Positions 2,693 to 18,284 of a stretch of 32,000 bases of DNA are shown piece by piece. The notes beneath the pieces were generated by a model. It had not been told where the DNA came from, ran no database searches, and saw nothing but the letters and a program-made list of their open reading frames with translations. Each line of letters opens with the position of its first letter. Position 1 is the first letter of the stretch. A program made the position numbers and the translations under genes. Source of the DNA: Akkermansia muciniphila ATCC BAA-835 (lineage in GTDB: Bacteria; Verrucomicrobiota; Verrucomicrobiia; Verrucomicrobiales; Akkermansiaceae); contig NC_010655.1 in NCBI RefSeq assembly GCF_000020225.1, positions 1,290,001 to 1,322,000 of the forward strand, given 5' to 3'.

Positions 2693-2771
2693 GGGGAACG
2701 CGTCCGTGTTTAGGCGATAATGTGTTAGAGCACCGGATGACTAGTCCATACAGTTTGTGGACGCGTTCCCC
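2693..2771. other. Long stem-loop: perfect 13-bp inverted repeat GGGGAACGCGTCC / GGACGCGTTCCCC with a 53-nt loop
   Basis: Arms at 2693-2705 and 2759-2771. On the minus strand the stem is followed by TCACTTTTTTCC. It could end a leftward transcript starting near 2962 and/or the rightward phosphoesterase gene. Confidence 0.4.
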
Positions 2772-2962
2772 ATAGAATTTGGCCGCGCCTGTTTTCCCTG
2801 GTAGCCGGCGGGACAGTTTTTCCCGGAGCTTTTCAGGGCGCAGCCCCGGCAGCAGCAGGGGCGCGAGGAGGAAAAAAACCTGGAGAAGAAGGACTCCATT
2901 CTGGCGGGTGCGCCGCCGGAGCACTTTCTTTCACCGTTTCTTTCCGAATTGGGGCTGACCAT
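2741..2962 (-). CDS. Candidate small Cys-rich protein (73 aa), or alternatively part of a metal-regulated sRNA
   Basis: ATG at 2962 lies 6 nt after a TAACTT -10-like hexamer that overlaps an operator. The ORF MVSPNSERNGERKCSGGAPARMESFFSRFFSSSRPCCCRGCALKSSGKNCPAGYQGK... has 7 Cys. Codon choice (TCC, TGC, GGC, CCC) resembles the real genes here. No homolog recognised. Confidence 0.3.
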   Translation of the reverse strand: MVSPNSERNGERKCSGGAPARMESFFSRFFSSSRPCCCRGCALKSSGKNCPAGYQGKQARPNSMGNASTNCMD

Positions 2963-2997: not shown

Positions 2998-3070
2998 GAA
3001 AAAAGTTTGTCTCACCTAATATTTTTCAAGAAGAGGTTGACTTGGTCAGAGCCTTGGTTATTGTTTTTTG

Positions 3071-3084
3071 TTAGTTAAACCTAA
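3071..3084. promoter_or_regulatory. Operator site S2 (TTAGTTAAACCTAA) 13 nt upstream of the regulator ATG; overlaps a TAATAA -10-like hexamer (3082-3087)
   Basis: Exact TTAG-N6-CTAA palindrome. A TTGACT hexamer lies at 3037-3042. The position suggests autoregulation. Confidence 0.6.
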
Positions 3085-3096
3085 TAAGCATCAATC

Positions 3097-3504
3097 ATGA
3101 TACATGAAAAATTTTCCACTCCGGAGTTGAGCAACAGCCTGGAGGATTATATTGAGGCCGTCCGCAACATTGAGTTGGAAAAGGGATGCGCCACCGTAGG
3201 GGAAATTGCGGAATCTCTGAACGTGAAAAAACCTTCCGCCTCACTGGCCATGAAGCAGTTGAAGGAACGCGGCCTGGTGGAATACACGCAGTATTCTCCC
3301 ATTGTCCTGACCAGGGAAGGCCGTTATTACGCGGACCGGGTCATTTCCTGCCATACCATGGTGAAGGAGTTCCTCATTACGGTGCTGAAGATGGAGGAAA
3401 AACGCGCCGATGAAGTGGCCTGTTGCATTGAACATATCATGACTCTGGAGGAAATCTCCCGTTTCCAGCTTCTGACGGATCGTTGCAGGGAAAGAGGAGA
3501 ATAA
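3097..3504 (+). CDS. DtxR/MntR-family metal-dependent transcriptional regulator (135 aa, no SH3-like domain)
   Basis: N-terminal LEDYIEAV... and the wHTH segment VGEIAESLNVKKPSASLAMKQLKERGLVEY, followed by a dimerisation/metal domain with H86 and C109-x-x-E112-H113. Collinear with B. subtilis MntR and the first two domains of DtxR. Confidence 0.9.
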   Translation: MIHEKFSTPELSNSLEDYIEAVRNIELEKGCATVGEIAESLNVKKPSASLAMKQLKERGLVEYTQYSPIVLTREGRYYADRVISCHTMVKEFLITVLKMEEKRADEVACCIEHIMTLEEISRFQLLTDRCRERGE

Positions 3505-3540: not shown

Positions 3541-3568
3541 GAGGGAATGGCTCATCCCTCTCTTTTTT
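3541..3568 (+). terminator. Weak intrinsic terminator candidate after the regulator gene
   Basis: GAGGGA-atggctca-TCCCTC followed by TCTTTTTT. The stem is only 6 bp. It overlaps the stop codon of the convergent ATPase gene. Confidence 0.35.
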
Positions 3569-5663
3569 ACTTCGGAACCCGGACAGGGGGAAGGCATCGG
3601 CGTGTGCTGCGCGCGCTGACGTACACTGTGGAAGCGTTATGGAGGAACGCGGAAAGGTCCGGGGTAATCAGCCCGAACATGCCTAGCAGGATCAGAGAGG
3701 AGTTGAACCCGACGATAAAGCGGTAGTTGCGTTCTATTTTTTCAAGGACGGCACAGCTCAATTCCCTTAAAACAACCAGTTCAGCCAGAGAGCTGGACAA
3801 CAGGGAAATATCCGCCACTTCACGGGCGATATCGGAAGAATCCTTCATGGAGACGGAAACATCTGCACAGGAAAGAGCGGGGGAATCGTTGATGCCGTCT
3901 CCCACCATGCACACTGTTTTGCCGGATTTCTTCAATTGCTGGATAAAGCGGGCCTTATCTTCAGGCAGAACCTGGGAACGGTATTCCGTGATGCCCAACT
4001 GGCGGCTGATGGCGCGGGCTGCGGATTCGCTGTCCCCCGTGAGCATGATGATGGAGGAAATGCCCTGCCGTTTCAGCCGGGCGATCGTCTCTGCGGCTTC
4101 CGGCCTGGGCGGGTCGCTGACGCCGATCATGCCGATTGCTCTGCGGCCTATGGCGAGAAAGATGTTGGATTTTCCTCTGGCGTGATTGCGTATGGTCAGC
4201 CTTTGCTCTTCCGTGAGGGGGATGCGTTCATCTTCAAAGAGAAAATGGTAGCTGCCCACAAGAACCTTTTTTCCATGAAGGCGGGAGGAAATGCCGTGGG
4301 CCACGATGTATTCCACCTCCGCATGTTCTTCTTCATGGTGTAGGCCCTCCTCCAGCGCTTTGCGCACAACGGCCCGCGCCACGCTGTGGGGGAAGTGTTC
4401 TTCCAGGCATGCTGCCGTTTTCAGGATATATTCCCTGCTGCAGTCGCTCAAAGGGATGATCTGCGTTACCTGAGGGCAGGCGGAGGTCAGCGTGCCCGTC
4501 TTGTCAAAAACGATGGTGTCCGTTTTGGCGAACAGCTCCATGAATTTCCCGCCCTTGATCATGATCTTGCGCGCTGCGGCCTCTTTCATGGCGGAGATGA
4601 CGGAGATGGGGGTGGCGAGCTTGATGGCGCAGGAATAATCCACCATCAGCACGGAGAGAGCCTTGGAGATATTCCTGGTGAACAGAAACAGCGCCCCTGC
4701 CGTGAGCAGGGTATAGGGAACGATAGAATCCGCCAGCTTTTCCGCCCGGCTTTGGATGCGCGCTTTCAGTTCCTCCGAATGGTCGATCAGGGCGATGATA
4801 TTGTTAATGCGGGACTGGTCTCCTGCGGCGTCCACCCGGATGACGAGGGAACCCGTTTCCAGCGTGGTTCCGGCAAAGACGACGGACCCTTCCCGTTTGG
4901 AAGCCGCTTCCGATTCCCCCGTCATGGCGGCCTGGTTGACTTCCGCTTCTCCGGACAGCACGGTACCGTCCACAGGGATGACGTTCCCCGCGTCCACGCG
5001 GATTTTCTCCCCCGGGCGGATTTGCTCCATGGGAACCTGGCGCATGCCTCCTTCTTCCACCCGCCAGACGCGGTCTATATTTATGCTCAGGCTGGCCGCA
5101 AGCGCCGCCCGGGTCTTTTTCCGAGTGTAATTTTCCAGCAGGTCTGAAATGGAAAGAAGGAACATGATGGAATTGGCCGTTCCGTAAGCCTTCGTGCCTA
5201 TGGAAACCCCGATGGAGACGGCGTCCAGAACGGCTACGTTGAGCCGTCCGCTTCCCAGGCCGGCCATTCCGCGCCGTAAATAGGAACTGTAATTCCAGAA
5301 TGCTTTGGCCATTCTGAGCGGGGGCGGCAGAAACACCTTGCAAAACAGGAAAGAGGAAGCTTTCCCCGCTATGCGGAGAAAAAAGGACCGGGCCAGTTTC
5401 CTGGCCTCCGCGCGCTCTTCCGGTTCGTGGCTGCGGAGTGTTTCCGGCCTGAGCCTGTCCAGCGTGCGGAAAATGGCCTGGGGGCTGGTTCCTTCATACA
5501 GGATGAACACACCTCCGTTGCAGGGGGTGGCCTTGACGGAGTATACGCCTTTCTGTTTCAGGAGCCTGCATTCGATGCCGTAAGCCTGGTCATGATTGAA
5601 TGCGCAGCGGCCGCTGCGTACACGGAGCCTGCCGGGCGTATGATGGATAACCTGGTAATGCAT
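3567..5663 (-). CDS. P1B-type heavy-metal ATPase with atypical Y-S-C-A transport motif
   Basis: Contains DKTGTLT, TGES, MLTGD and GDGINDSPAL. The helix preceding DKTGT reads MVDYSCAIKLATP where CopA/ZntA have CPC (codons at 4626-4637). The C-terminal FLHNASTVYVSA resembles the HEGxT helix of Co/Fe-type pumps. The N-terminus has an HMA-like fold with no CxxC. I chose the start at MHYQVIHHTPGRLRVR (5663). The track ORF extends to 5729 but would then include a terminator-like hairpin. Confidence 0.88.
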   Translation of the reverse strand: MHYQVIHHTPGRLRVRSGRCAFNHDQAYGIECRLLKQKGVYSVKATPCNGGVFILYEGTSPQAIFRTLDRLRPETLRSHEPEERAEARKLARSFFLRIAGKASSFLFCKVFLPPPLRMAKAFWNYSSYLRRGMAGLGSGRLNVAVLDAVSIGVSIGTKAYGTANSIMFLLSISDLLENYTRKKTRAALAASLSINIDRVWRVEEGGMRQVPMEQIRPGEKIRVDAGNVIPVDGTVLSGEAEVNQAAMTGESEAASKREGSVVFAGTTLETGSLVIRVDAAGDQSRINNIIALIDHSEELKARIQSRAEKLADSIVPYTLLTAGALFLFTRNISKALSVLMVDYSCAIKLATPISVISAMKEAAARKIMIKGGKFMELFAKTDTIVFDKTGTLTSACPQVTQIIPLSDCSREYILKTAACLEEHFPHSVARAVVRKALEEGLHHEEEHAEVEYIVAHGISSRLHGKKVLVGSYHFLFEDERIPLTEEQRLTIRNHARGKSNIFLAIGRRAIGMIGVSDPPRPEAAETIARLKRQGISSIIMLTGDSESAARAISRQLGITEYRSQVLPEDKARFIQQLKKSGKTVCMVGDGINDSPALSCADVSVSMKDSSDIAREVADISLLSSSLAELVVLRELSCAVLEKIERNYRFIVGFNSSLILLGMFGLITPDLSAFLHNASTVYVSARSTRRCLPPVRVPK

Positions 5664-5666
5664 GGA

Positions 5667-5713
5667 TAAGGAAAAAGAAAAGGGGGAAACGCCCTTCTCC
5701 GTGCGTTTCCCCC
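5667..5713 (-). terminator. Strong intrinsic terminator or attenuator between the small upstream ORF and the ATPase start
   Basis: Perfect 11-bp stem GGGGGAAACGC / GCGTTTCCCCC (5682-5692 and 5703-5713) with a 10-nt loop. On the minus strand it is followed by TTTTCTTTTTCC, ending 3 nt before the ATG at 5663. Confidence 0.6.
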
Positions 5714-5786
5714 GTTGGGGGCGGTCCATTCCGCTGGCGGAGAAGGAAACGGGCGCCCCGCTGTTTGGTGATGGACAATGAGATTG

Positions 5787-6017
5787 CTACTGTTCCGGCC
5801 TGCTGTTTTTCGCGGCGGCCTCATGGCACAGGTCTTGGGCTTCTTCCCGGATGTTTGCCAGTTGTTCCATGGCCTTCTGCTGGATGAGCATGGCCTTGGA
5901 AAGGCCCTGGACGGCCAATTTCCTGGCAACGGGACTTTTTACTACTTTCGCTCCGATGGCGGCGGCGATCATTCCTCCGACGAAGCCCCAGAGGCCTTTG
6001 TTGTTCATGTAACTCAT
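5787..6017 (-). CDS. Small membrane-anchored helical protein (76 aa) upstream of the P1B ATPase; PacL/DUF1490-like by architecture
   Basis: From the internal ATG at 6017: MSYMNNKGLWGFVGGMIAAAIGAKVVKSPVARKLAVQGLSKAMLIQQKAMEQLANIREEAQDLCHEAAAKNSRPEQ. It has one N-terminal TM helix, then an amphipathic E/A/Q-rich helix, then a DLCHE motif near the C-terminus. The track ORF starts at a TTG at 6137. Confidence 0.55.
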   Translation of the reverse strand: MSYMNNKGLWGFVGGMIAAAIGAKVVKSPVARKLAVQGLSKAMLIQQKAMEQLANIREEAQDLCHEAAAKNSRPEQ

Positions 6018-6143
6018 GGTAATGTTTTGATTGGGTTCATCCGGCCTTGGCGGCATGCAGCCGCTTCTTTTCCGGAAGGATTGGATTATATCCAATCCAG
6101 CCTGCATTTTTTTAGCGTGCCCCCGTATTCTGGTCAAGATGAA

Positions 6144-6157
6144 TTAGTTGAAACTAA
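6144..6157. promoter_or_regulatory. Operator site S3 (TTAGTTGAAACTAA) 6 nt upstream of a minus-strand TTGACC -35-like hexamer (6137-6132)
   Basis: Exact TTAG-N6-CTAA with extended arms AATTAG/CTAATT. On the minus strand, TTGACC-N17-TAAAAA follows it, heading into the small ORF / ATPase unit. Confidence 0.55.
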
Positions 6158-6276
6158 TTTTTTAGCAGACATGAAAATATTTTTGCGATATTTTTAATAC
6201 GTTGAAAACAAATAAAATATAATGAACCAACATAATGTTGTACTGAGCAGGGCAAGGGCATTGGGAAGAAAAAGTG

Positions 6277-6305
6277 TTGACTGAATAGTTAGTTTAATCT
6301 AACTT
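6277..6305 (+). promoter_or_regulatory. Promoter-operator module TTGACT-N17-TAACTT containing operator site S4 (TTAGTTTAATCTAA, 6289-6302)
   Basis: TTGACTGAATAGTTAGTTTAATCTAACTT. The 14-mer is identical to the site at 12016-12029, with arms AGTTAG/CTAACT. It points toward the porin gene. Confidence 0.65.
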
Positions 6306-6591
6306 TGCCGCGTTGCATGAACTTGACCCATACAGGACTTCACCGTTTCTTCCGCCGGGTCTGCCGGTACAGGAAACTGGCCGGGCTGCTCATCCGGCGT
6401 CCCAGATACCGTCTGCTCTGCGGAGACTGTGGGTTCTGTATGGGGGCATGCGGCAGAGCTGTGAAAGAGCAAGCCCGGGAGAACGGAAGCGGAGCTCTTT
6501 CCCTGTAAAAGGAAAGCGCCCCTCTCCACCTCTGGATCAATCATATAAGTATTATACCACAAACATCCAACGATAAGACTAACCGTTTTCT

Positions 6592-7809
6592 ATGAAGAAG
6601 CATAACATAATAGCAATGGCGTTGACGAGCCTCATGGCGCTTCCTGTAATCGCTCAAGACAGCACCCCTGCTGTTGGTGATATTTTGCAGGGCATCAACA
6701 TGTTCACTCCGGAAGAAGGTGATCCTGCCTGCAAGGTGAAGGCCAATGAGAAATACGGCACCCAATGGGGTGTGGATATGGCCTACGGGCTTTGGAATAC
6801 GGAAAAGGTTTCCGATGTTAAGCGCCATAACAACCTGGCTCTTCTTCATGCCCAGCTTAATCAGCGCCTTATTGAAGACAAGGCCAACGGGGGAACCTGG
6901 TTGCGTGTGGAATTTTCCGGTTCATGGGGGCTGGATCGTGAATCCGCACAGAGCGATACGTTTTTCACTGAAGCCTATGCCACGGCTTCCGGCTTGCATG
7001 CTGACGCGATGGGGCCTCATGAAGGAATATTCCCTGAAGTGGCGCTGATGCAATACTTTGCAGGGAAGCGCGCTTGCCTCATCGCAGGTATGGTGAATCT
7101 CACCAACTACTTTGATGCTGTCAGCATTGCCAATGACTCCTTCTCCTCTTTCACCAATGACGGGTTTGTGAACTCCACTATCCTACCTTTGGTGGACAGC
7201 AATATTGGCGGTATTCTGCAAGTTGAACTCAACCGCAATAATTACATGATGGTTGCCGTTTCCCGCACGGGATGCGATTCCGGATACAATCCTTTTAATT
7301 CCGATTATTGCGATGGTTATGCCGTGGTTGGCGAATACGGCCATATCTTTGCCGACGGCGCTGCGACTCTCCGCATCAATCCGTTCTATACCAGCACGGA
7401 TGTGGACATGGACGACGGGACCGGGGAACGCCGCCGCCAAAATGCCGGGCTTGTCGCGAGCATCGAATATACTCCCTGCGATCCTCTGACCATTTACTCC
7501 CGCGCCGGATTTGCCGCCAAACAATACTTGAGCAACTCCGCTGAATTCTCCGTGGGCGCCAACATTAAGCTCTTCCCTTCCCGTGAAGATGACTTCCTGG
7601 GCATTTCCTACGGTGTGTTCAAGGGGCAGACCCCCTGTGACGGAGAGCGCGCTGAGCATAACCGCGAACAGGTGCTGGAAGTCATGTACAGCTTCCAGGT
7701 GAATGATTATTTCAAAGTTGTTCCTCACTTCCAGTACATCGCGAATCCGGCTTACAGCACTTCCAGCGAAAACATTCTCTGGGGCGTTCAGGCAGTCTTT
7801 TCTTTCTGA
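6592..7809 (+). CDS. Outer-membrane beta-barrel porin, OprB (carbohydrate-selective porin) family-like
   Basis: Signal peptide MKKHNIIAMALTSLMALPVIAQD. Alternating beta-strand pattern, a C-terminal ...VVPHFQYIANPAYS... motif like the OprB xPDxQYIxNPG motif, and a terminal aromatic (VFSF). Confidence 0.75.
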   Translation: MKKHNIIAMALTSLMALPVIAQDSTPAVGDILQGINMFTPEEGDPACKVKANEKYGTQWGVDMAYGLWNTEKVSDVKRHNNLALLHAQLNQRLIEDKANGGTWLRVEFSGSWGLDRESAQSDTFFTEAYATASGLHADAMGPHEGIFPEVALMQYFAGKRACLIAGMVNLTNYFDAVSIANDSFSSFTNDGFVNSTILPLVDSNIGGILQVELNRNNYMMVAVSRTGCDSGYNPFNSDYCDGYAVVGEYGHIFADGAATLRINPFYTSTDVDMDDGTGERRRQNAGLVASIEYTPCDPLTIYSRAGFAAKQYLSNSAEFSVGANIKLFPSREDDFLGISYGVFKGQTPCDGERAEHNREQVLEVMYSFQVNDYFKVVPHFQYIANPAYSTSSENILWGVQAVFSF

Positions 7810-8015: not shown

Positions 8016-8355
8016 ACGGAGCCATTTACCCTCCTTTATTGATGCCTGCTGGCGGAGCTTGGACCGGCAATGTATGCCGGGTCATGGAATGGCCTTCAGC
8101 CTTTCCTTATCTACCGTCAAATACTGACTGTTGAAGGTAGGAGGCTTCCCCAAGGCTATTCCGTAGAATTTTTATCCCAGGGAAAAATAAAAGCCGCCTG
8201 AAAATGGGCTTTCCCACCCCTGTCTCCGTTCCCGGAAAAAACGGAAAAGAAGGCTTTTTGCCACGCCGGAAGATGGATGGGAGCCGCAACGTTTCCGGGG
8301 GCCGAAGCGTTTAAAACCATATTGACTTAAACGGGAATTATCTTAAACTGACAGA

Positions 8356-8763
8356 ATGAGTAAGGTTCAATGGGAAATTTCAAATGATGAAGTGACCGAC
8401 CGTGATACTGCTCTGCGCCGCTTGCAGGAAGGAACGACCGGCCACGTGGTGTGCGCCCGCGACGGCGCGTGCCTCCAGTCTTATAAGGAAGCGGATGGCG
8501 TGTACCATTGCGAAATTGTATTCAAGACGGATTCCTGCTGCCCGCCGGTATTCGCCGCCCCGGAAGGGGTGACGGGAAAGGAGCTGGAAATGCTTTACGA
8601 TCGTTTTGCCAATGGGGACGATTTTTCCTTTGTGGAAAAGGAATGGGAACCTCTGATGGCCGTGGAATACCGCCATCGCCACAATGTGATGTGGTTCATC
8701 TTCCTGTTCATTGCGCTGGTAATTGCGGCCATGGCGGCATATCAGCACGGTTGGATTGAGTGA
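8356..8763 (+). CDS. Hypothetical tail-anchored membrane protein (135 aa)
   Basis: ORF with normal codon usage, a soluble Cys-containing N-terminal domain (5 Cys) and a C-terminal TM helix VMWFIFLFIALVIAAMAAY. TTGACT (8322-8327) -N16- TAAACT (8344-8349) ends 6 nt before the ATG. No family recognised. Confidence 0.5.
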   Translation: MSKVQWEISNDEVTDRDTALRRLQEGTTGHVVCARDGACLQSYKEADGVYHCEIVFKTDSCCPPVFAAPEGVTGKELEMLYDRFANGDDFSFVEKEWEPLMAVEYRHRHNVMWFIFLFIALVIAAMAAYQHGWIE

Positions 8764-8861: not shown

Positions 8862-9047
8862 TTAATCCTGTTTTTCGTGGTCGTGATGGTGGCCGCCGCA
8901 GCAATTTCCGCCGCCACCGCAACAGCCGTCGCTGTCGTTGCCGCAACATCCGCAGTTGCCGCAGCACTTGCCGCGCTTACTGAAAATTTTGTATAACGCG
9001 TAGGCTAGGGCCAGGAAAAGAAGGGTGGCGATGATATATGTTCCCAT
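8862..9047 (-). CDS. FeoB-associated Cys-rich membrane peptide (61 aa)
   Basis: N-terminal TM helix MGTYIIATLLFLALAYALYKIF followed by KCCGNCGCCGNDSDGCCGGGGNCCGGHHHDHEKQD (9 Cys, 4 His). It sits directly downstream of feoB, as expected for the FeoB-associated Cys-rich family. Confidence 0.8.
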   Translation of the reverse strand: MGTYIIATLLFLALAYALYKIFSKRGKCCGNCGCCGNDSDGCCGGGGNCCGGHHHDHEKQD

Positions 9048-9081
9048 ATTGGTCAGTAGAGTTAAGGAATTGGTTTAGGAG

Positions 9082-11343
9082 TTATTTGGAGGCTGTATAA
9101 GGTTTCTTTGCCACTAGGTAAACGAACCCCAGCAGGAGCAATAGGGCAATGCCCTGCCCGATGCCGAAGGAAGCTTCCGCATAAAGCCATGCTCCCAGCT
9201 GGTAAATCAGGAAGGCCAGGCAGTACGCCAGGGCGCACATGTAGCCGATGGCGAAGAAGGTCCATTTGGCGCTGTTCATTTCCCTTCTGATAGCGCCCAT
9301 GGCCGCGAAGCAGGGGGCGCAGAGAAGATTGAAAATCATGAAGGAGAAAGCGCTCAGGAAGGTGAAGGCTCCCGCTTGGACCAGGCGGTCCCCGGTTTCC
9401 CTGATTTCCGCATCTTCATCTTCCTCTTCTTCCGCTTCAGCAGCGGATTCTCCGGAACCTTCCTCCAGGGATGCCTGGAGCTCCCGGCCGGCGGGGGACA
9501 TTTCCTGCGTTTCGGGGGAGTCCTCCGTTTTTTCCGCTTCATCTTCCCCGGAACTGCCGTCCGCATACAGGACGCCGAAGGTGCCTACCACGTTTTCCTT
9601 GGCAATCAATCCGGTAATGGTAGCCATGGTGGGTTTCCATTCACCCCAGCCCAGAGGCTGGAAGACAGGCGCGGCCACATTGCCGATGGAGGCCAGCATG
9701 CTGTCATTCTGCTCTACGGAATCCACCTTCCAGTTATAGCTGGAGAGGAACCAGATCAGGGCGCTGGACACAAAGATGACGGTCCCGGCTTTTTGCACGA
9801 AAGCCTTGCAGCGGTCCCATGCATGAATGATGACGTTCTTCCAGGCCGGGATGTGGTAAATGGGAAGTTCCATGACGAAGGGAGTGGGGTCCCCGGCGAA
9901 CATGGCAGTCTTTTTCAGAATAAGGCCGGAAAGGATGATGGCGCCCACCCCGATGAAATAGGCTCCCGGAGCCACCCAGGAATTTTCCGGGAAGAAGGCT
10001 CCGGCAATCAGGGCAATGATGGGAGTTTTGGCCCCGCAGGGGATGAACGTGGTGGTCATGATAGTCATGCGCCTGTCCTTTTCGTTCTCAATGGTGCGGG
10101 TCGCCATGACTCCAGGAACGCCGCACCCCATGGAAACGAGCATGGGAATAAAGGATTTCCCGGAAAGGCCGAATTTGCGGAAAATGCGGTCCATGATGAA
10201 CGCTACGCGGGCCATGTAGCCGCAATCCTCCAATATGCCCAGGCACAGGAACAGAACCGCCATTTGCGGGAGGAAGCCCAGAACGGCTCCCACGCCGGCA
10301 ATCACGCCGTCCTGGATCAGGCTTTCCAGCCATGGGGCGCAGCCGGCGTTTTCCAGCAGGCTTCCTACCCATTCCGGAACCCATTCCCCGAAGAAAGTAT
10401 CATTGGCCCAGTCTGTGCCCCATGCGCCTATCGTCTGAATGGAGATGTAATATACAGCCCACATGACGACGGCAAAAATGGGGAGGCCCAGCCAGCGGTT
10501 GGTGATGATGCGATCAATCCTGTCGCTGCCCGTCAGGCTGCCGGGGCTGGCTTTAACGACGGCGTCTTTGATGATGCGGGAAATGGAATTATAGCGTTCA
10601 TTGGTGATAATGGATTCACTGTCGTCATCCATTTCCCGTTCCATGGTTTCAATAATCCCGTTGATGCGGGATTGTTCCTCGGGATTGAGCGCGAGCTGGT
10701 CCGCGACTTTCTGGTCTCTTTCGAAAACTTTAACGGCAAACCATTTTTTCTGCTGATCCAGGCATTTTCCGGTGATGATTTCCCCAATTTCTCCGATGGC
10801 TTTTTCCAGATGGTCCGGAAAGTGGACGGCCTGCGGGGTCCGGGCGTCGTCCGACGCAGTCGTCGTTACTACGGCGTCTATCAGTTCACGGATGCCGGTC
10901 CCCTTGAGAGCGCTGATTTCCAGCACCTGGCAACCGAGGTTGCGTGCAAGTTTTTCCGTGTCGATCCTGTCGCCGCGCTTCCGGACAATGTCCATCATGT
11001 TCAGCGCTATAATGACGGGAACGCCCAGTTCGCAAAGCTGGGTGGTGAGGTAAAGATTGCGTTCCAGGTTGCTGCCGTCAACCAGGTTCAGGATGAGGGA
11101 GGGATGGTCCGTGACTAGGTAATTCCGGCTGACGACTTCCTCCAGGGTATAGGGGGAAAGGGAATAAATGCCCGGAAGGTCTTCAATGATGATATTTTTA
11201 TGGCCTTTCAGGCGGCCTTCCTTTTTTTCCACGGTGACGCCGGGCCAGTTCCCGACGTATTGGTTGGCGCCTGTCAGGGCGTTAAAGAGCGTGGTTTTCC
11301 CGCAGTTGGGGTTGCCCGCCAGGGCGATGGTAATGTTGCTCAT
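9082..11343 (-). CDS. feoB: Ferrous iron (divalent metal) transporter FeoB
   Basis: From the internal ATG at 11343: MSNITIALAGNPNCGKTTLFNALTG (G1), DLPGIYSL (G3) and a NMMD-type G4, then the polytopic membrane domain. The track ORF start at 11625 is an upstream extension. The protein carries a ~60-aa acidic insertion (9376-9561). Confidence 0.95.
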   Translation of the reverse strand: MSNITIALAGNPNCGKTTLFNALTGANQYVGNWPGVTVEKKEGRLKGHKNIIIEDLPGIYSLSPYTLEEVVSRNYLVTDHPSLILNLVDGSNLERNLYLTTQLCELGVPVIIALNMMDIVRKRGDRIDTEKLARNLGCQVLEISALKGTGIRELIDAVVTTTASDDARTPQAVHFPDHLEKAIGEIGEIITGKCLDQQKKWFAVKVFERDQKVADQLALNPEEQSRINGIIETMEREMDDDSESIITNERYNSISRIIKDAVVKASPGSLTGSDRIDRIITNRWLGLPIFAVVMWAVYYISIQTIGAWGTDWANDTFFGEWVPEWVGSLLENAGCAPWLESLIQDGVIAGVGAVLGFLPQMAVLFLCLGILEDCGYMARVAFIMDRIFRKFGLSGKSFIPMLVSMGCGVPGVMATRTIENEKDRRMTIMTTTFIPCGAKTPIIALIAGAFFPENSWVAPGAYFIGVGAIILSGLILKKTAMFAGDPTPFVMELPIYHIPAWKNVIIHAWDRCKAFVQKAGTVIFVSSALIWFLSSYNWKVDSVEQNDSMLASIGNVAAPVFQPLGWGEWKPTMATITGLIAKENVVGTFGVLYADGSSGEDEAEKTEDSPETQEMSPAGRELQASLEEGSGESAAEAEEEEDEDAEIRETGDRLVQAGAFTFLSAFSFMIFNLLCAPCFAAMGAIRREMNSAKWTFFAIGYMCALAYCLAFLIYQLGAWLYAEASFGIGQGIALLLLLGFVYLVAKKPYTASK

Positions 11344-11419
11344 GAATGGTTTCCTTGTCTTGATATATGGGTGCCCGTCTTGCTGTAAAGTCAGGAAACG
11401 TGCGGTAATAGAGGCGGAA

Positions 11420-11650
11420 TCAATGGATATGGATGTTCTCCGCTTCCGATTTGCGAATGGAGAGTTCGTACCCGCGGACAGTAACTTCAATGGGATCTCC
11501 CAGAGGGGCGACTTTGCGGATGAATATCTGCGTTCCCTTGGTAACCCCCATGTCCATGATGCGTCTTCTGACCGGGCCTTCCCCCGCCAGTTTGCCGACG
11601 GTGACGGTTTCCCCGATGAGGGCATCTCTCAATGTACGATGTTTGGTCAT
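11420..11650 (-). CDS. feoA: FeoA family protein (second copy, 76 aa)
   Basis: From the ATG at 11650: MTKHRTLRDALIGETVTVGKLAGEGPVRRRIMDMGVTKGTQIFIRKVAPLGDPIEVTVRGYELSIRKSEAENI. This is a FeoA SH3-like pattern. Confidence 0.85.
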   Translation of the reverse strand: MTKHRTLRDALIGETVTVGKLAGEGPVRRRIMDMGVTKGTQIFIRKVAPLGDPIEVTVRGYELSIRKSEAENIHIH

Positions 11651-11681
11651 AGAATAATGGTTGGTTGTTGGATGGAATAAC

Positions 11682-11894
11682 TCAGGCAACGAATATTTTG
11701 CTGGCAAGCGCCTTGCTGAGCGCAATCCTGGAGCCTTTGACGTTGATAATGAAATTACCGCCGTTTTCGGAAACGATGGAGACCGTGCTCCCGGCAACGA
11801 AGCCCAGGCTTTCTAGAAAACGCCGGGTTTCATCCTTGCCATGGATTTTGTTGACTTGGCGAATATCGCCGATGTTGAGCATGGAGAGTGGCAT
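11682..11894 (-). CDS. feoA: FeoA family protein (first copy, 70 aa)
   Basis: From the ATG at 11894: MPLSMLNIGDIRQVNKIHGKDETRRFLESLGFVAGSTVSIVSENGGNFIINVKGSRIALSKALASKIFV. Confidence 0.85.
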   Translation of the reverse strand: MPLSMLNIGDIRQVNKIHGKDETRRFLESLGFVAGSTVSIVSENGGNFIINVKGSRIALSKALASKIFVA

Positions 11895-11922: not shown

Positions 11923-11951
11923 AAGTTAGTTTTATCAAACTGATAAGTCAA
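11923..11951 (-). promoter_or_regulatory. feo promoter-operator module TTGACT-N17-TAACTT with degenerate operator S7 (plus-strand TTAGTTTTATCAAA, 11926-11939)
   Basis: Minus strand reads TTGACTTATCAGTTTGATAAAACTAACTT. One half-site is exact (CTAAC) and the other has one mismatch (GTTTG). The module lies about 29 nt upstream of the feoA ATG. Confidence 0.55.
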
Positions 11952-12015
11952 TGATATTATTAGGATATATTTTTTCAATCAATGTCAAATGCGTTTAATA
12001 TAAATTGTTTGCGTA

Positions 12016-12029
12016 TTAGTTTAATCTAA
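12016..12029. promoter_or_regulatory. Operator site S5 (TTAGTTTAATCTAA), distal site upstream of the feo operon
   Basis: Exact TTAG-N6-CTAA, identical 14-mer to 6289-6302, located 122 nt upstream of the feoA ATG. Confidence 0.6.
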
Positions 12030-15301: not shown

Positions 15302-16300
15302 ATGAGCTTTTCAGAACCCTGTGCCTTGGCCGTTGATTTCGGCGGCACGAGCATCAAAATGGGCGTAACGGCGGGGGATCGTATTCTGGCGACGGCCGAC
15401 CGCATCCCTACTGCCATGTTCGAAAGCCCGCAGGCAATCATTGATGCCATGATTGCGTCCGCCCGCACCCTGCGCGGACAATTCCCCTCCGCCTGTGTGA
15501 TGGGCATGGGAATGCCGGGATGGTGTGATTACCAGCGGGGAGTGCTTTACCAGCTTACCAATGTGAGGGTCTGGGATAGGGAAATTCCGGTGAAAGAGAT
15601 GATGGAGCAGGCCCTGGGCCTCCCCGTCGTGCTGGATAATGACGCCAACTGCATGGCTTATGCGGAATGGAAGCTTGGCGCCGGGCGCGGCATGTCCAGC
15701 CTGGTGTGCCTGACGATGGGAACGGGGATAGGCGGGGGAATCGTGGTGCATGACCGCATGCTGCGGGGAAGGCGGCTTTCCGCTGCGGAACTGGGCCAGA
15801 CCAGCATTCATTACCAGGGGAAAACGGGACCGTTCGGCAGCCGGGGAGCCATTGAGGAATACATCGGCAACAACGAACTGGCGGCGGAGGCGGTTAAACG
15901 GTATGCCGGGGCGGGAATCATCAAGACGGTGGATGAATGCACGCCCAGGCATCTGGACGAGGCTGCCCGGTCCGGATGTCCTATAGCCCTTCAATTATGG
16001 GAAGATACGGCGGAAATGCTGGGCTGCCTGATCATGAACCTGATGTATACGCTGGTGCCGGACGCCTTCATCATCGGGGGCGGTGTGGCCAAGGCAGGGG
16101 ATTTGTTGATGAAGCCGCTGCTGGAGAACCTCAGGAAACAGTTGTTTCCTCTCCTGATGGAGGATTTGAAAATTCTGCCTGCCAGATTTGGAGCGGAGGC
16201 GGGGTTGCTGGGAGCGGGAGCCATGGCGATGGATGAATTCATGGGGCTGGGGATTTTGGAACGGTTTAAGAACCAGAAATCAACGCAGACTTTTTGTTAG
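15302..16300 (+). CDS. ROK-family sugar kinase (glucokinase / N-acetylhexosamine kinase-like)
   Basis: AVDFGGTSIKMG (phosphate-1), LDNDANCMAYAE and GTGIGGGIV. The usual ROK Cys-rich zinc motif is absent (ELGQTSIHYQGKTGPFGSRGAIEEY). Confidence 0.82.
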   Translation: MSFSEPCALAVDFGGTSIKMGVTAGDRILATADRIPTAMFESPQAIIDAMIASARTLRGQFPSACVMGMGMPGWCDYQRGVLYQLTNVRVWDREIPVKEMMEQALGLPVVLDNDANCMAYAEWKLGAGRGMSSLVCLTMGTGIGGGIVVHDRMLRGRRLSAAELGQTSIHYQGKTGPFGSRGAIEEYIGNNELAAEAVKRYAGAGIIKTVDECTPRHLDEAARSGCPIALQLWEDTAEMLGCLIMNLMYTLVPDAFIIGGGVAKAGDLLMKPLLENLRKQLFPLLMEDLKILPARFGAEAGLLGAGAMAMDEFMGLGILERFKNQKSTQTFC

Positions 16301-16310
16301 TTTGGGCTAA
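16297..16310. promoter_or_regulatory. Operator site S6 (TTAGTTTGGGCTAA) overlapping a TAATAT -10 hexamer (16308-16313), 49 nt upstream of the CPC-type ATPase
   Basis: Exact TTAG-N6-CTAA. Its left half overlaps the TAG stop codon of the ROK kinase gene. Confidence 0.55.
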
Positions 16311-16358: not shown

Positions 16359-18284
16359 ATGAGCACGGAACATTCCCACGAACATTTTCCGGAAGGTGCT
16401 TCCTGTTGTTCCGGAAGCTGCGGTTCTGGAAGCTGTTGCTGCTCCGGAGACGCCATCGGGCCTGTTCCCGCCGTGCTGGGCATTGCCCTGTTCATCAGTG
16501 CGCTGGCGGCGGGCGGCGATTCCCTGGCCGGTATGGCCGCCTACGTGGGCTCCTACCTGCTGATAGGCTGGGATGTACTGAAGGCCGCCTTTCTGGGGAT
16601 GATGCGCGGCCGCGCCATCAATGAAAATTTTCTGATGAGTATTGCTTCCCTGGGGGCGATGTTCCTGGGGGATTATTCCGAGGCGGTGGGGGTGATGCTG
16701 TTCTACCGCGTGGGAGAGTACCTTCAGGAACGTGCGGTGGGCAGCTCCCGCCGGTCCGTAAGCGAACTGATGAGTCTGAGGCCTGAGGCCGTCCATGTGA
16801 AAAAAGCCGGAGCCGTAGATGACGTTCCTCCTTCCGAGGTTCTGCCCGGCTCCCTGATTGAAGTGCGCCCCGGCGAACGCGTTCCGTTGGACGGTGTGGT
16901 AACGGGAGGCTGCTCCGTGCTGGATACCTCCGCCATGACCGGGGAATCCCTGCCGGTGGAAGCCGGATCCGGAAGCTCCGTGCTGGCGGGGTACATCAAC
17001 GGGCAGGGTGTGCTGGAAGTGTGTACGGAGCGGGACTGGCGGCATTCCGCCCTGGCGCGGGTCCAGGAACTGGTGGAAGCCGCATCAGGCCGCAAATCCC
17101 CTCTGGAGGGGAGGCTGTCCTCATTTTCCCGCATTTATACGCCGCTGGTGATTTCCATAGCCGCTCTGGTATTTTTGCTTTATCCCCTTGTGACGGGCGG
17201 AAGCTGGGCGGACGGTCTGTTCCGCGCCCTGGTCCTGCTGGTGATTTCCTGCCCCTGCGCGCTGGTGCTGTCCATCCCGCTGGGCTTTTTTGCCGGAATA
17301 GGGAGAGCGGCGCGGCAGGGGATTTTGCTGAAAGGGAGCAACTATCTGGATGCCCTGCGGAAGGTGAAGACGGTGGTGTTTGACAAAACCGGAACCTTGA
17401 CGGAAGGCGTTTTTTCCGTGGATGAAGTGCTTCCCCGTGACGGCGTTTCCCCGGAGGAACTGCTGTACTGGGCGGCCCATGCGGAACTCTCCGCCTCCCA
17501 TCCGCTGGGGCGTTCCATTGTGAAGGCATATGAAGGGACTCTGTTTCCGGACCGCGTGGCGGAACTGGTGGAGGTGACGGGCGGCGGCGTTTCAGCCCGC
17601 GTGGAAGGGAGACCGGTTCTGGTGGGGAAAAAGTCTTTTCTTCAAGAGGCCGGCGTAAGGACGGAGGAGGGAGAAGACCGTGGCGTGACCGTTTATGCGG
17701 CGTTGGACGGCATACTTCTGGGATGCCTCCGCCTGTCTGACCGCGTCAAGCCGGGAGCGGAGCGTGCGGTGCGGAAATTGAGGGAACTGGGCGTTTCCAA
17801 CCTGGTCATGCTGACGGGGGATTCTTCTTCCGCCGGAACGGAAGTGGGGCTTAAGCTGGGGATGGACGGGGTATTCTGCGGGCTGATGCCTGCCGGCAAG
17901 CTGGAGCATGTGCGCCGGCTGAAACCTGAAACGGGGCTGCTTGCCTTTGTGGGGGACGGTATGAATGACGCCCCTTCCCTCGCTGCTGCCGACATCGGAA
18001 TTGCCATGGGCGGCGTAGGGTCCGATACGGCTCTTCAGGCGGCTGACGTAGTGGTGATGAAGGGAGATCCTTTGGCTGTTCCGCTGGGGATGATGCTTTC
18101 CCAAGCCACAGAGCGCATCATTGTGCAGAACATCGTTCTTATTTTGGGCGTCAAAATTCTGGTCATGGTGCTGGGTATTCTGGGGCTGGCTGGGATGTGG
18201 GCCGCCGTGATGGCGGATGTGGGCGTCTGCCTGCTTGCGGTGGGCAACTCCATGCGTATTTTCCGGGTGAAGCTGGACATGTGA
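16359..18284 (+). CDS. P1B-2-like (Zn/Cd/Pb-type) heavy-metal ATPase
   Basis: Cys/His-rich N-terminus MSTEHSHEHFPEGASCCSGSCGSGSCCCSGD. Also SCPCAL, DKTGTLT, GDGMNDAPSL, and the final helix ADVGVCLLAVGNSMR (Asp as in ZntA/CadA). Confidence 0.9.
   Translation: MSTEHSHEHFPEGASCCSGSCGSGSCCCSGDAIGPVPAVLGIALFISALAAGGDSLAGMAAYVGSYLLIGWDVLKAAFLGMMRGRAINENFLMSIASLGAMFLGDYSEAVGVMLFYRVGEYLQERAVGSSRRSVSELMSLRPEAVHVKKAGAVDDVPPSEVLPGSLIEVRPGERVPLDGVVTGGCSVLDTSAMTGESLPVEAGSGSSVLAGYINGQGVLEVCTERDWRHSALARVQELVEAASGRKSPLEGRLSSFSRIYTPLVISIAALVFLLYPLVTGGSWADGLFRALVLLVISCPCALVLSIPLGFFAGIGRAARQGILLKGSNYLDALRKVKTVVFDKTGTLTEGVFSVDEVLPRDGVSPEELLYWAAHAELSASHPLGRSIVKAYEGTLFPDRVAELVEVTGGGVSARVEGRPVLVGKKSFLQEAGVRTEEGEDRGVTVYAALDGILLGCLRLSDRVKPGAERAVRKLRELGVSNLVMLTGDSSSAGTEVGLKLGMDGVFCGLMPAGKLEHVRRLKPETGLLAFVGDGMNDAPSLAAADIGIAMGGVGSDTALQAADVVVMKGDPLAVPLGMMLSQATERIIVQNIVLILGVKILVMVLGILGLAGMWAAVMADVGVCLLAVGNSMRIFRVKLDM

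Follow-up and report, generated by a model that had tools for sequence, protein, structure and literature searches.

At the tox promoter/operator of Corynebacterium diphtheriae and at other promoters controlled by DtxR or IdeR, the operator overlaps the -10 element and the holo-repressor competes with RNA polymerase. DtxR-family proteins repress by occluding RNA polymerase (PMC7762939). In the 19-bp IdeR box each subunit reads one CCTAA repeat, the dimers using repeats 1 and 3 and repeats 2 and 4, and a single dimer of the Saccharopolyspora IdeR binds the 14-bp sequence TTAGGNNNNCCTAA (PMC8464063). In the Planctomycetes-Verrucomicrobia-Chlamydiae (PVC) superphylum, the Fe2+-dependent DtxR-type protein YtgR of Chlamydia autoregulates its iron-uptake operon and is thought to exclude RNA polymerase (PMC5599777). 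Here we describe a 29-nt module that recurs at three transcription units in a 32,000-nt stretch of Akkermansia muciniphila ATCC BAA-835 (contig NC_010655.1, positions 1,290,001 to 1,322,000; hereafter the window, in whose own numbering all coordinates are given). Judged from its sequence and its surroundings, the module is probably a sigma-70-type promoter with a built-in operator for the DtxR/MntR-family metalloregulator encoded at 3097-3504.

The proposed module shares with the iron box of the actinobacterial IdeR and DtxR the inverted TTAG/CTAA cores and their 10-bp centre-to-centre spacing, as well as the assignment to a winged-helix dimer of the DtxR family, the location at iron-uptake promoters and the occlusion of RNA polymerase. 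It departs from that box in having no 19-bp two-dimer arrangement and no conserved fifth base (TTAGG/CCTAA), and its putative regulator, which belongs to the phylum Verrucomicrobiota, carries Leu50 where IdeR and DtxR have Gln43, the residue in contact with that base, and lacks the SH3-like third domain. As in tox-type promoters, a TTAG-type half-site would lend TAnnnT-like bases to the -10 element; unlike them, the module holds a single palindrome of 14-18 bp wholly in the 17-nt spacer, in a fixed register that is reused at three units and at the feo loci of other phyla. The comparison with YtgR is one of description and not of operator sequence, and YtgR, unlike the Akkermansia repressor, is cleaved from a permease fusion. 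The Fur boxes on the feoAB promoter of Proteobacteria follow the same logic, with an Fe2+-loaded repressor on a ferrous-uptake promoter and porin-assisted Fe2+ entry, but Fur belongs to an unrelated protein family and reads an unrelated AT-rich 19-bp box, which was not detected in the window.

An earlier note on this DNA had reported three similar 29-mers. All three were found letter for letter, and a count by column agreed with its figure of 17/29 positions identical in the three. The modules and the repressor gene are as follows; ORF-A and ORF-B are small open reading frames (ORFs), and the transcription start sites (TSSs) are predictions.

6277-6305, plus strand: module 1, with TTGACT (-35), a 17-nt spacer and TAACTT (-10), enclosing operator O5 (6289-6302); predicted promoter of ORF-B and the porin gene, with a predicted TSS at G6312.
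11951-11923, minus strand: module 2, with TTGACT, a 17-nt spacer and TAACTT, enclosing operator O6 (11926-11939), whose left half-site is TTTG; predicted promoter of feoA-feoB, with a predicted TSS at G11916.
2997-2969, minus strand: module 3, with TTGCAA, a 17-nt spacer and TAACTT, enclosing operator O1 (2972-2985); predicted promoter of ORF-A, with a predicted TSS at A2962, the A of the ATG, so that the transcript would be leaderless.
3097-3504, plus strand: gene for a DtxR/MntR-family repressor of 135 amino acids with two domains (Pfam Fe_dep_repress and Fe_dep_repr_C), the orthologue of Amuc_1082.

The pattern TTG-N7-AGTTWG-N6-CTAACTT, with at most one mismatch, occurs at exactly three places in the 32-kb window and at none in 100 dinucleotide-preserving shuffles, and the heptamer CTAACTT is found in the window at the three module sites only. 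At the core of the module is the 14-bp palindrome TTAG-N6-CTAA, which in the three modules extends to AGTTAG-N6-CTAACT. It lies at about -24 to -11 relative to the predicted TSS (+1), and its right half-site plus one T makes up the hexamer TAACTT.

Exact copies of TTAG-N6-CTAA are present at six places in the 32 kb (2972, 3071, 6144, 6289, 12016 and 16297), against 0.09 expected. At 3006 and 11926 stand two copies with one mismatch each, a half-site that reads TTTG, and this deviation is kept in every species examined. This gives a total of eight operator-type sites, all of which adjoin metal-homeostasis genes. They fall in the control regions of ORF-A and the repressor gene (2972, 3006 and 3071), of a heavy-metal ATPase gene and the ORF-B-porin unit (6144 and 6289), of feoA (11926 and 12016) and of a second ATPase gene (16297); the three sites O1-O3 flank the repressor gene, in its upstream region. 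The three palindromes that the earlier note had reported are all present, but five more sites, which do not have the module format, had been missed. Two other one-mismatch sites were left out of the count: of 28016 and 31170, one stands beside unrelated genes, for an M42 peptidase and an ORF of unknown function, and the other is intragenic, and about four such matches are expected by chance.

The frame of TTAG-N6-CTAA is the frame of TTAGGNNNNCCTAA, and the six exact and two one-mismatch sites all show the half-site sequence and the spacing of about 10 bp. The best match in the window to the 19-bp two-dimer box TTAGGTTAGSCTAACCTAA reaches 14/19, equal to shuffled sequence. Likewise, the best match in the window to the 19-bp Fur box (GATAATGATAATCATTATC-like) is 13/19, equal to shuffles, and none lies at the promoters. 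Since neither the 19-bp IdeR box nor the Fur box rises above shuffled sequence, we read the sites as one-dimer sites. The G/C at the fifth position of the pentamer is not conserved, and the inner positions differ freely from one site or species to the next.

The conservation of the module was followed in five Akkermansia genomes (L001-L005), whose repressor proteins are 83-88% identical, and in several metagenome contigs; the tally by column covers 22 distinct module sequences from the three units. Proteins identical to those encoded in the window are found in genomes labelled A. muciniphila. Five of the six exact palindromes are at orthologous positions in all five genomes, as are both TTTG variants, the sixth (16297) falling outside the fetched flanks. 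Module 1 is kept in 8 distinct Akkermansia sequences. Across the alignment neither the -35 hexamer nor AGTTAG/CTAACT changes. Three stretches do vary: the N6 centre, the 4-5 nt that separate the palindrome from the -35 hexamer, and the 5 nt that follow TAACTT. The spacer measures 17 nt in 22/22 tabulated sequences and 16 nt in the feoA copy of L004, which stands outside the table. Invariant half-sites around a free N6 in the Akkermansia species, the clustering at metal-transport genes and at a DtxR-family gene, and the one-dimer frame of IdeR support the suggestion, already made in the earlier note, that the palindrome is an operator, although the note named no regulator for it.

To see how far the module extends beyond Akkermansia, we scanned metagenomes with TTG-N8-GTTWG-N6-CTAACTT and obtained at least 120 loci, six of those listed being Akkermansia. 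Although the pattern fixed no more than TTG of the -35 hexamer, 17 of the 116 non-Akkermansia matches listed have the complete TTGACA, where about 2 would be expected at equal base frequencies. Among the matches listed, the first downstream gene encodes FeoA in six loci and a Cys-rich protein of the FeoB-associated kind in one. Homologues of DtxR and/or Feo proteins are encoded at 23 of the 114 loci listed (0.74 Mb in total; 12 DtxR, 15 FeoB and 8 FeoA). By a rough estimate from gene frequencies, fewer than one each of DtxR, FeoB and FeoA would be expected in 0.74 Mb. By their gene content, these loci link the module to Feo and DtxR genes across phyla. That the likeness of the 29-mers arose by chance or from an old duplication, with no regulatory role, is exceedingly improbable in view of the 0 matches in 100 shuffles, the column-specific conservation around a free spacer and the recurrence at feo loci of unrelated bacteria.

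Many non-Akkermansia loci have a second TTAG-N6-CTAA 21-32 bp downstream of the module, among the matches listed (such tandem operators are seen in L010, L045, L050, L052, L088, L092, L097, L102 and L117). No such tandem was seen in Akkermansia; there the second site stands farther off, at 87-147 bp. In two further loci, L081 and L083, the start codon of a TetR-family gene lies 6-7 nt past a TTGACA-17 nt-TAACTT pair that encloses GTTAG-N6-CTAAC. From this spacing the two are probably leaderless promoters that use TAACTT as their -10 element, with a similar-looking operator of a different regulator family.

The product of the repressor gene was compared residue by residue with characterized family members. 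The DtxR query sequence was verified against PDB 1bi0 and aligned to the Akkermansia protein, and a separate comparison was made with B. subtilis MntR, the closest solved structure (PDB 1on1 and others, E = 2e-11). Three DtxR ligand positions are conserved, H79 corresponding to H86, E105 to E112 and H106 to H113. C102 of DtxR corresponds to C109, a DtxR-like residue at a position where MntR has E99, whereas M10 is replaced by D17 and R13 by E20, both MntR-like (D8 and E11). Q43 of DtxR, which is a base-contacting residue in IdeR, is replaced by L50, and a leucine at this position fits the non-conserved fifth base of the half-sites.

The Akkermansia protein is like B. subtilis MntR in having two domains and a length of about 140 residues, and D8/E11/H77/E102/H103 of MntR are found as D17/E20/H86/E112/H113; MntR, too, represses metal-uptake genes from promoter-overlapping palindromes. 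One rival reading is that the regulator is a true MntR, with Mn2+ as co-repressor or with mixed specificity, and the module a manganese switch. The nearest solved structures and NCBIfam models are MntR, the repressor has two domains and no SH3 domain, D17 and E20 occupy the positions of MntR D8 and E11, and one source labels the protein 'DtxR family Mn-dependent transcriptional regulator'. However, similarity to MntR is low and the MntR model scores are far under the NCBIfam cut-offs (69.8 against 138, and 68 against 153), the position of MntR E99 and DtxR C102 is a Cys as in iron sensors (C109-x-x-E112-H113), the main targets are feoAB and not mntH or mntABCD, and the A. muciniphila cluster responds to iron chelation and repletion (PMC12552655). 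We consider a manganese switch rather unlikely, and an iron-responsive repressor remains our preferred assignment.

A different regulator, for instance a Fur protein of the Amuc_0486 type, might instead bind the palindrome, the nearby DtxR gene being coincidental. An A. muciniphila study matched the motifs that it had predicted in these promoters to those of Fur, and Fur is co-expressed with the cluster. In the window, however, the best Fur-box match stays at the shuffled level given above, TTAG/CTAA half-sites at 10-bp spacing are the signature of DtxR and IdeR, three sites surround the dtxR gene, and among the matches listed the module occurs with DtxR homologues 12 times in the 0.74 Mb of unrelated metagenomic loci. 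Binding by Fur or another such protein is thus very unlikely, and we retain the DtxR/MntR-family protein as the probable ligand of the palindrome.

We then considered whether the hexamers that flank and overlap the palindrome act as a promoter. The -35 hexamer is TTGACT in two units (5/6 of TTGACA) and TTGCAA in the third (4/6), both are kept across species, and such a hexamer is present on one side of the palindrome only. TAACTT was not called by a standard consensus scan, but it keeps T-12, A-11 and T-7. Its last T (-7) is kept in 21/22 sequences, whereas the palindromic mirror position has the complementary A in only 5/22. A symmetric protein site cannot explain this asymmetry; a -10 element can. 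Conservation resumes at C(-1)/purine(+1), exactly the predicted -1/+1, in all three units. The ATG of ORF-A follows TAACTT by exactly 7 nt in 6/6 species, which is a leaderless geometry, and that of ORF-B follows it by 12 nt. Cappable-seq of the mouse gut microbiome gave -35/-10 logos of the sigma-70 type for A. muciniphila and put the share of leaderless starts at about 10% (PMC4782308). The arrangement of -35 hexamer, 17-nt spacer and TAACTT that the earlier note had put forward is supported by the one-sided -35, the fixed spacing, the last T in 21/22 and the restart of conservation at -1/+1. Our in-silico tests also favour its use of TAACTT as a -10 element, but the description of that use as unusual was overstated, given the retained T-12, A-11 and T-7; TAACTT would be a weak but orthodox -10 element.

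Several points weigh against the promoter-operator proposal. TAACTT matches only 3/6 of TATAAT. The extended palindrome alone could explain five of its six bases, and its positions 4-5 (C, T) may be conserved on that account, in which case only the last T and the -35 hexamer would be promoter-specific. Directly upstream of the feoA -35 hexamer stands a conserved (C)ATAATATCA block (11952-11960, minus strand), kept in all Akkermansia species examined and absent from the other two modules. This block may work as an UP-like element or as an alternative -10, or a second regulator, for instance Fur, may bind there; combined with a TTGAAA 16 nt away in the window, it makes a 10/12 promoter match. 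The metal ligands of the repressor are a hybrid, D17 and E20 being MntR-like and C109 DtxR-like, and Mn2+ could serve as co-repressor. A ZntA-like ATPase in the proposed regulon does not fit a purely iron-uptake logic. Finally, a published motif search attributed its motifs to Fur, Zur, PvdS and RpoN and assigned no DtxR box, and its authors asked for chromatin immunoprecipitation (ChIP) or mutant work (PMC12552655).

The feoA block bears on a further reading, that the DtxR-type operator is genuine but transcription starts elsewhere, at the ATAATATCA block for feoA and nearer 6592 for the porin gene, with the repressor acting as a downstream roadblock. A consensus scan does give two 10/12 candidates, TTGAAA-16 nt-TATCAT (11978-11951, minus strand), which adjoins the feoA module on its upstream side, and TTAATA-18 nt-TATAAT (6194-6223, plus strand); the block is conserved in all species, and TAACTT is a poor match to the -10 consensus. 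But the first candidate has a -35 that is not kept outside the window's own lineage, the second is not conserved in other species, and the interval from ORF-B to the porin ATG has no conserved hexamers that look like a promoter. The -35 hexamer of the module, in contrast, is invariant, conservation resumes at the predicted +1 in the three units, and the start of ORF-A is exactly 7 nt past TAACTT. Both scan promoters were rejected as the main starts and kept as a minor rival only, which we judge unlikely; the starts predicted from the modules are those we carry forward.

From this arrangement we infer which protein binds, its co-repressor metal, the transcription starts and the direction of regulation, and we propose the following mechanism. 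When the co-repressor metal (most likely Fe2+) is plentiful, one repressor dimer would sit on the palindrome and cover the spacer together with the upstream end of the -10 element, and RNA polymerase would be excluded. When iron is scarce, the apo-protein would leave and feoA-feoB, the ORF-B/porin unit and ORF-A would be transcribed, the ORF-A transcript being leaderless and ORF-B having a leader of only about 5 nt. The five further sites (O2, O3, O4, O7 and O8) would serve the same regulon in other geometries, with O2 and O3 bracketing the repressor's own promoter for autoregulation.

Published physiology of A. muciniphila MucT is consistent with such a circuit. In that strain Amuc_1082 is a DtxR-family regulator, named as the likely iron regulator in a 2025 study, and Amuc_1082-1084 are co-expressed with the Feo genes Amuc_1086-1090 (PMC12552655). 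The cluster Amuc_1082-1090, Amuc_1082 included, is induced by iron limitation imposed with polyphenols or dipyridyl and is lower in iron-replete medium (PMC12552655). We found no other paper that names Amuc_1082 or an Akkermansia DtxR operator.

A. muciniphila is a heavily studied gut symbiont, and the present analysis adds to its description the proposed TTAG-N6-CTAA operator, eight sites, their geometry and the predicted starts. The local regulon that we propose comprises the repressor itself, feoAB, both P-type ATPases, ORF-A and the porin unit, which begins with a Cys-rich mini-protein. The module pattern provides a simple metagenome search for DtxR-controlled ferrous-iron uptake, and a compact iron-switchable promoter could serve Akkermansia engineering. 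The proposed mechanism is textbook steric repression, so that the gain is in annotation and testability and not in a new principle.

The operator sites outside the modules, together with the predicted promoter of the repressor gene, are the following.

3006-3019: O2, TTTG-N6-CTAA, upstream of the predicted dtxR promoter (about -52 to -65), its right half forming TAATAT.
3037-3064, plus strand: TTGACT-16 nt-TATTGT, from which the repressor gene is predicted to be transcribed; its two hexamers are kept in orthologous loci.
3071-3084: O3, at about +1 to +14 when numbered from the start predicted for that promoter.
6144-6157: O4, abutting (at -42 to -55) the -35 hexamer of a predicted minus-strand promoter, TTGACC-17 nt-TAAAAA (6137-6109), for a DUF6110-like gene and ATPase 1.
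12016-12029: O7, the more distant of the two feoA sites; in all species it stands 87-90 bp upstream of O6.
16297-16310: O8, overlapping the stop codon of a ROK kinase gene, 49 nt upstream of ATPase 2; its right half forms TAATAT, and there is no good -35.

Autoregulation of dtxR is proposed because the position of O3, at about +1 to +14, fits it; O2, which lies exactly 34 bp from O1 in 6/6 species, is suggested by its place upstream of the promoter to be an auxiliary autoregulation site. Between O1 and O2 sits the -35 hexamer of module 3, TTGCAA (2992-2997), which is its own reverse complement. Read on the plus strand, the same TTGCAA is 19 nt upstream of the conserved TAATAT formed by O2, and a divergent, back-to-back promoter is possible there. 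O4, which stands 145 bp upstream of O5, persists in L002 and L004 although these genomes, in the region around 10405-10800, lack the cassette of the DUF6110-like gene and ATPase 1 (a 52-residue C-terminal remnant is present in L004); the -35 hexamer TTGACC of the ATPase 1 promoter is kept only where the cassette is present. In the predicted 5' untranslated region of the DUF6110/ATPase-1 operon there is a perfect palindrome, GGATTGGAT-ATA-ATCCAATCC (6077-6097, minus strand), which could be an RNA hairpin or the site of another regulator.

The genes of the proposed local regulon, apart from the repressor gene, are listed here.

2741-2962, minus strand: ORF-A, 73 amino acids, Cys-rich, annotated as 'hypothetical protein' in A. 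muciniphila genomes.
3567-5729, minus strand: heavy-metal P1B-type ATPase 1 (Pfam/NCBIfam).
5787-6017, minus strand: DUF6110-like gene, 76 amino acids, preceding ATPase 1.
6317-6508, plus strand: ORF-B, 63 amino acids, Arg-rich, with CxxCxxCxxxC, annotated as 'hypothetical protein' in A. muciniphila genomes.
6592-7809, plus strand: OprB-family porin (Pfam).
8862-11894, minus strand: feo operon, with feoA at 11682-11894, feoB at 9082-11625 and a Cys-rich gene at 8862-9047.
16359-18284, plus strand: heavy-metal P1B-type ATPase 2, ZntA/CadA-like, with a CPC motif and a Cys/His-rich N-terminus.

Module 1 had been attributed in the earlier note to the porin gene. It does stand upstream of that unit, but the first gene of the unit is ORF-B, and the roughly 290 nt before the porin ATG are not a leader. 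ORF-B is preserved in six species with an excess of substitutions at third codon positions, and it has no Pfam or NCBIfam match. A riboswitch or structured leader between module 1 and the porin ATG was rejected as a candidate: Rfam gave no match window-wide at gathering thresholds, and the region is the conserved ORF. The porin itself (6592-7809) is 90% identical between the window and L005, whereas the porins at the same position in L001-L004 are only about 28% identical (L001:13584-14783, L002:11317-12516, L003:13588-14787 and L004:11575-12552). The module and ORF-B are kept in all of them, and the porin gene seems, from this comparison, to have been swapped behind a fixed promoter.

Directly downstream of feoB, the 61-residue ORF at 8862-9047 (minus strand; MGTYIIATLLFLALAYALYKIF...CCGNCGCCG...) resembles the PF12669 match of L096, and its product looks like a FeoB-associated Cys-rich membrane protein.

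The ORF-A frame is of equal length in 5/6 species, L005 having one in-frame codon insertion, and its codon-position bias is weak. At its 3' end we noticed an element of about 80 nt (2693-2771) with a 13-bp closing stem (GGGGAACGCGTCC...GGACGCGTTCCCC), present as a single copy per locus. It overlaps the ORF-A stop codon, a U-run follows on the minus strand, and its fold z-score is -5.8 on the plus and -4.8 on the minus strand. Between the window and L001-L005 the identity of the element is essentially 100%, while the proteins differ by 12-17%. It has no Rfam, transfer-RNA or transfer-messenger-RNA match, and by its fold and conservation it is a candidate structured RNA. It is a speculation, to which we give little credence, that the module 3 transcript is a regulatory RNA, repressed by DtxR and responsive to iron, or an mRNA with a dual function; if so, it would be a verrucomicrobial counterpart of the iron-sparing small RNAs (sRNAs) of the RyhB/PrrF type. 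The 5' region of ORF-A did not score as a structured sRNA, with a single-sequence fold z of -1.9 and a positive (unfavourable) covariation term in the alignment fold. An antisense action of the ORF-A transcript on ORF-B, through CGGAAAGAAACGGUGAAAG, which is complementary to 6337-6353, was also rejected, the duplex energies being at the shuffled level and the match not conserved.

Between the porin gene and the feo operon, a promoter-like TTGACT-16 nt-TAAACT (8322-8349), with no operator, precedes an ORF of 135 amino acids on the plus strand (8356-8763). This ORF has no family match and is 84-96% identical across Akkermansia loci, above its neighbours.

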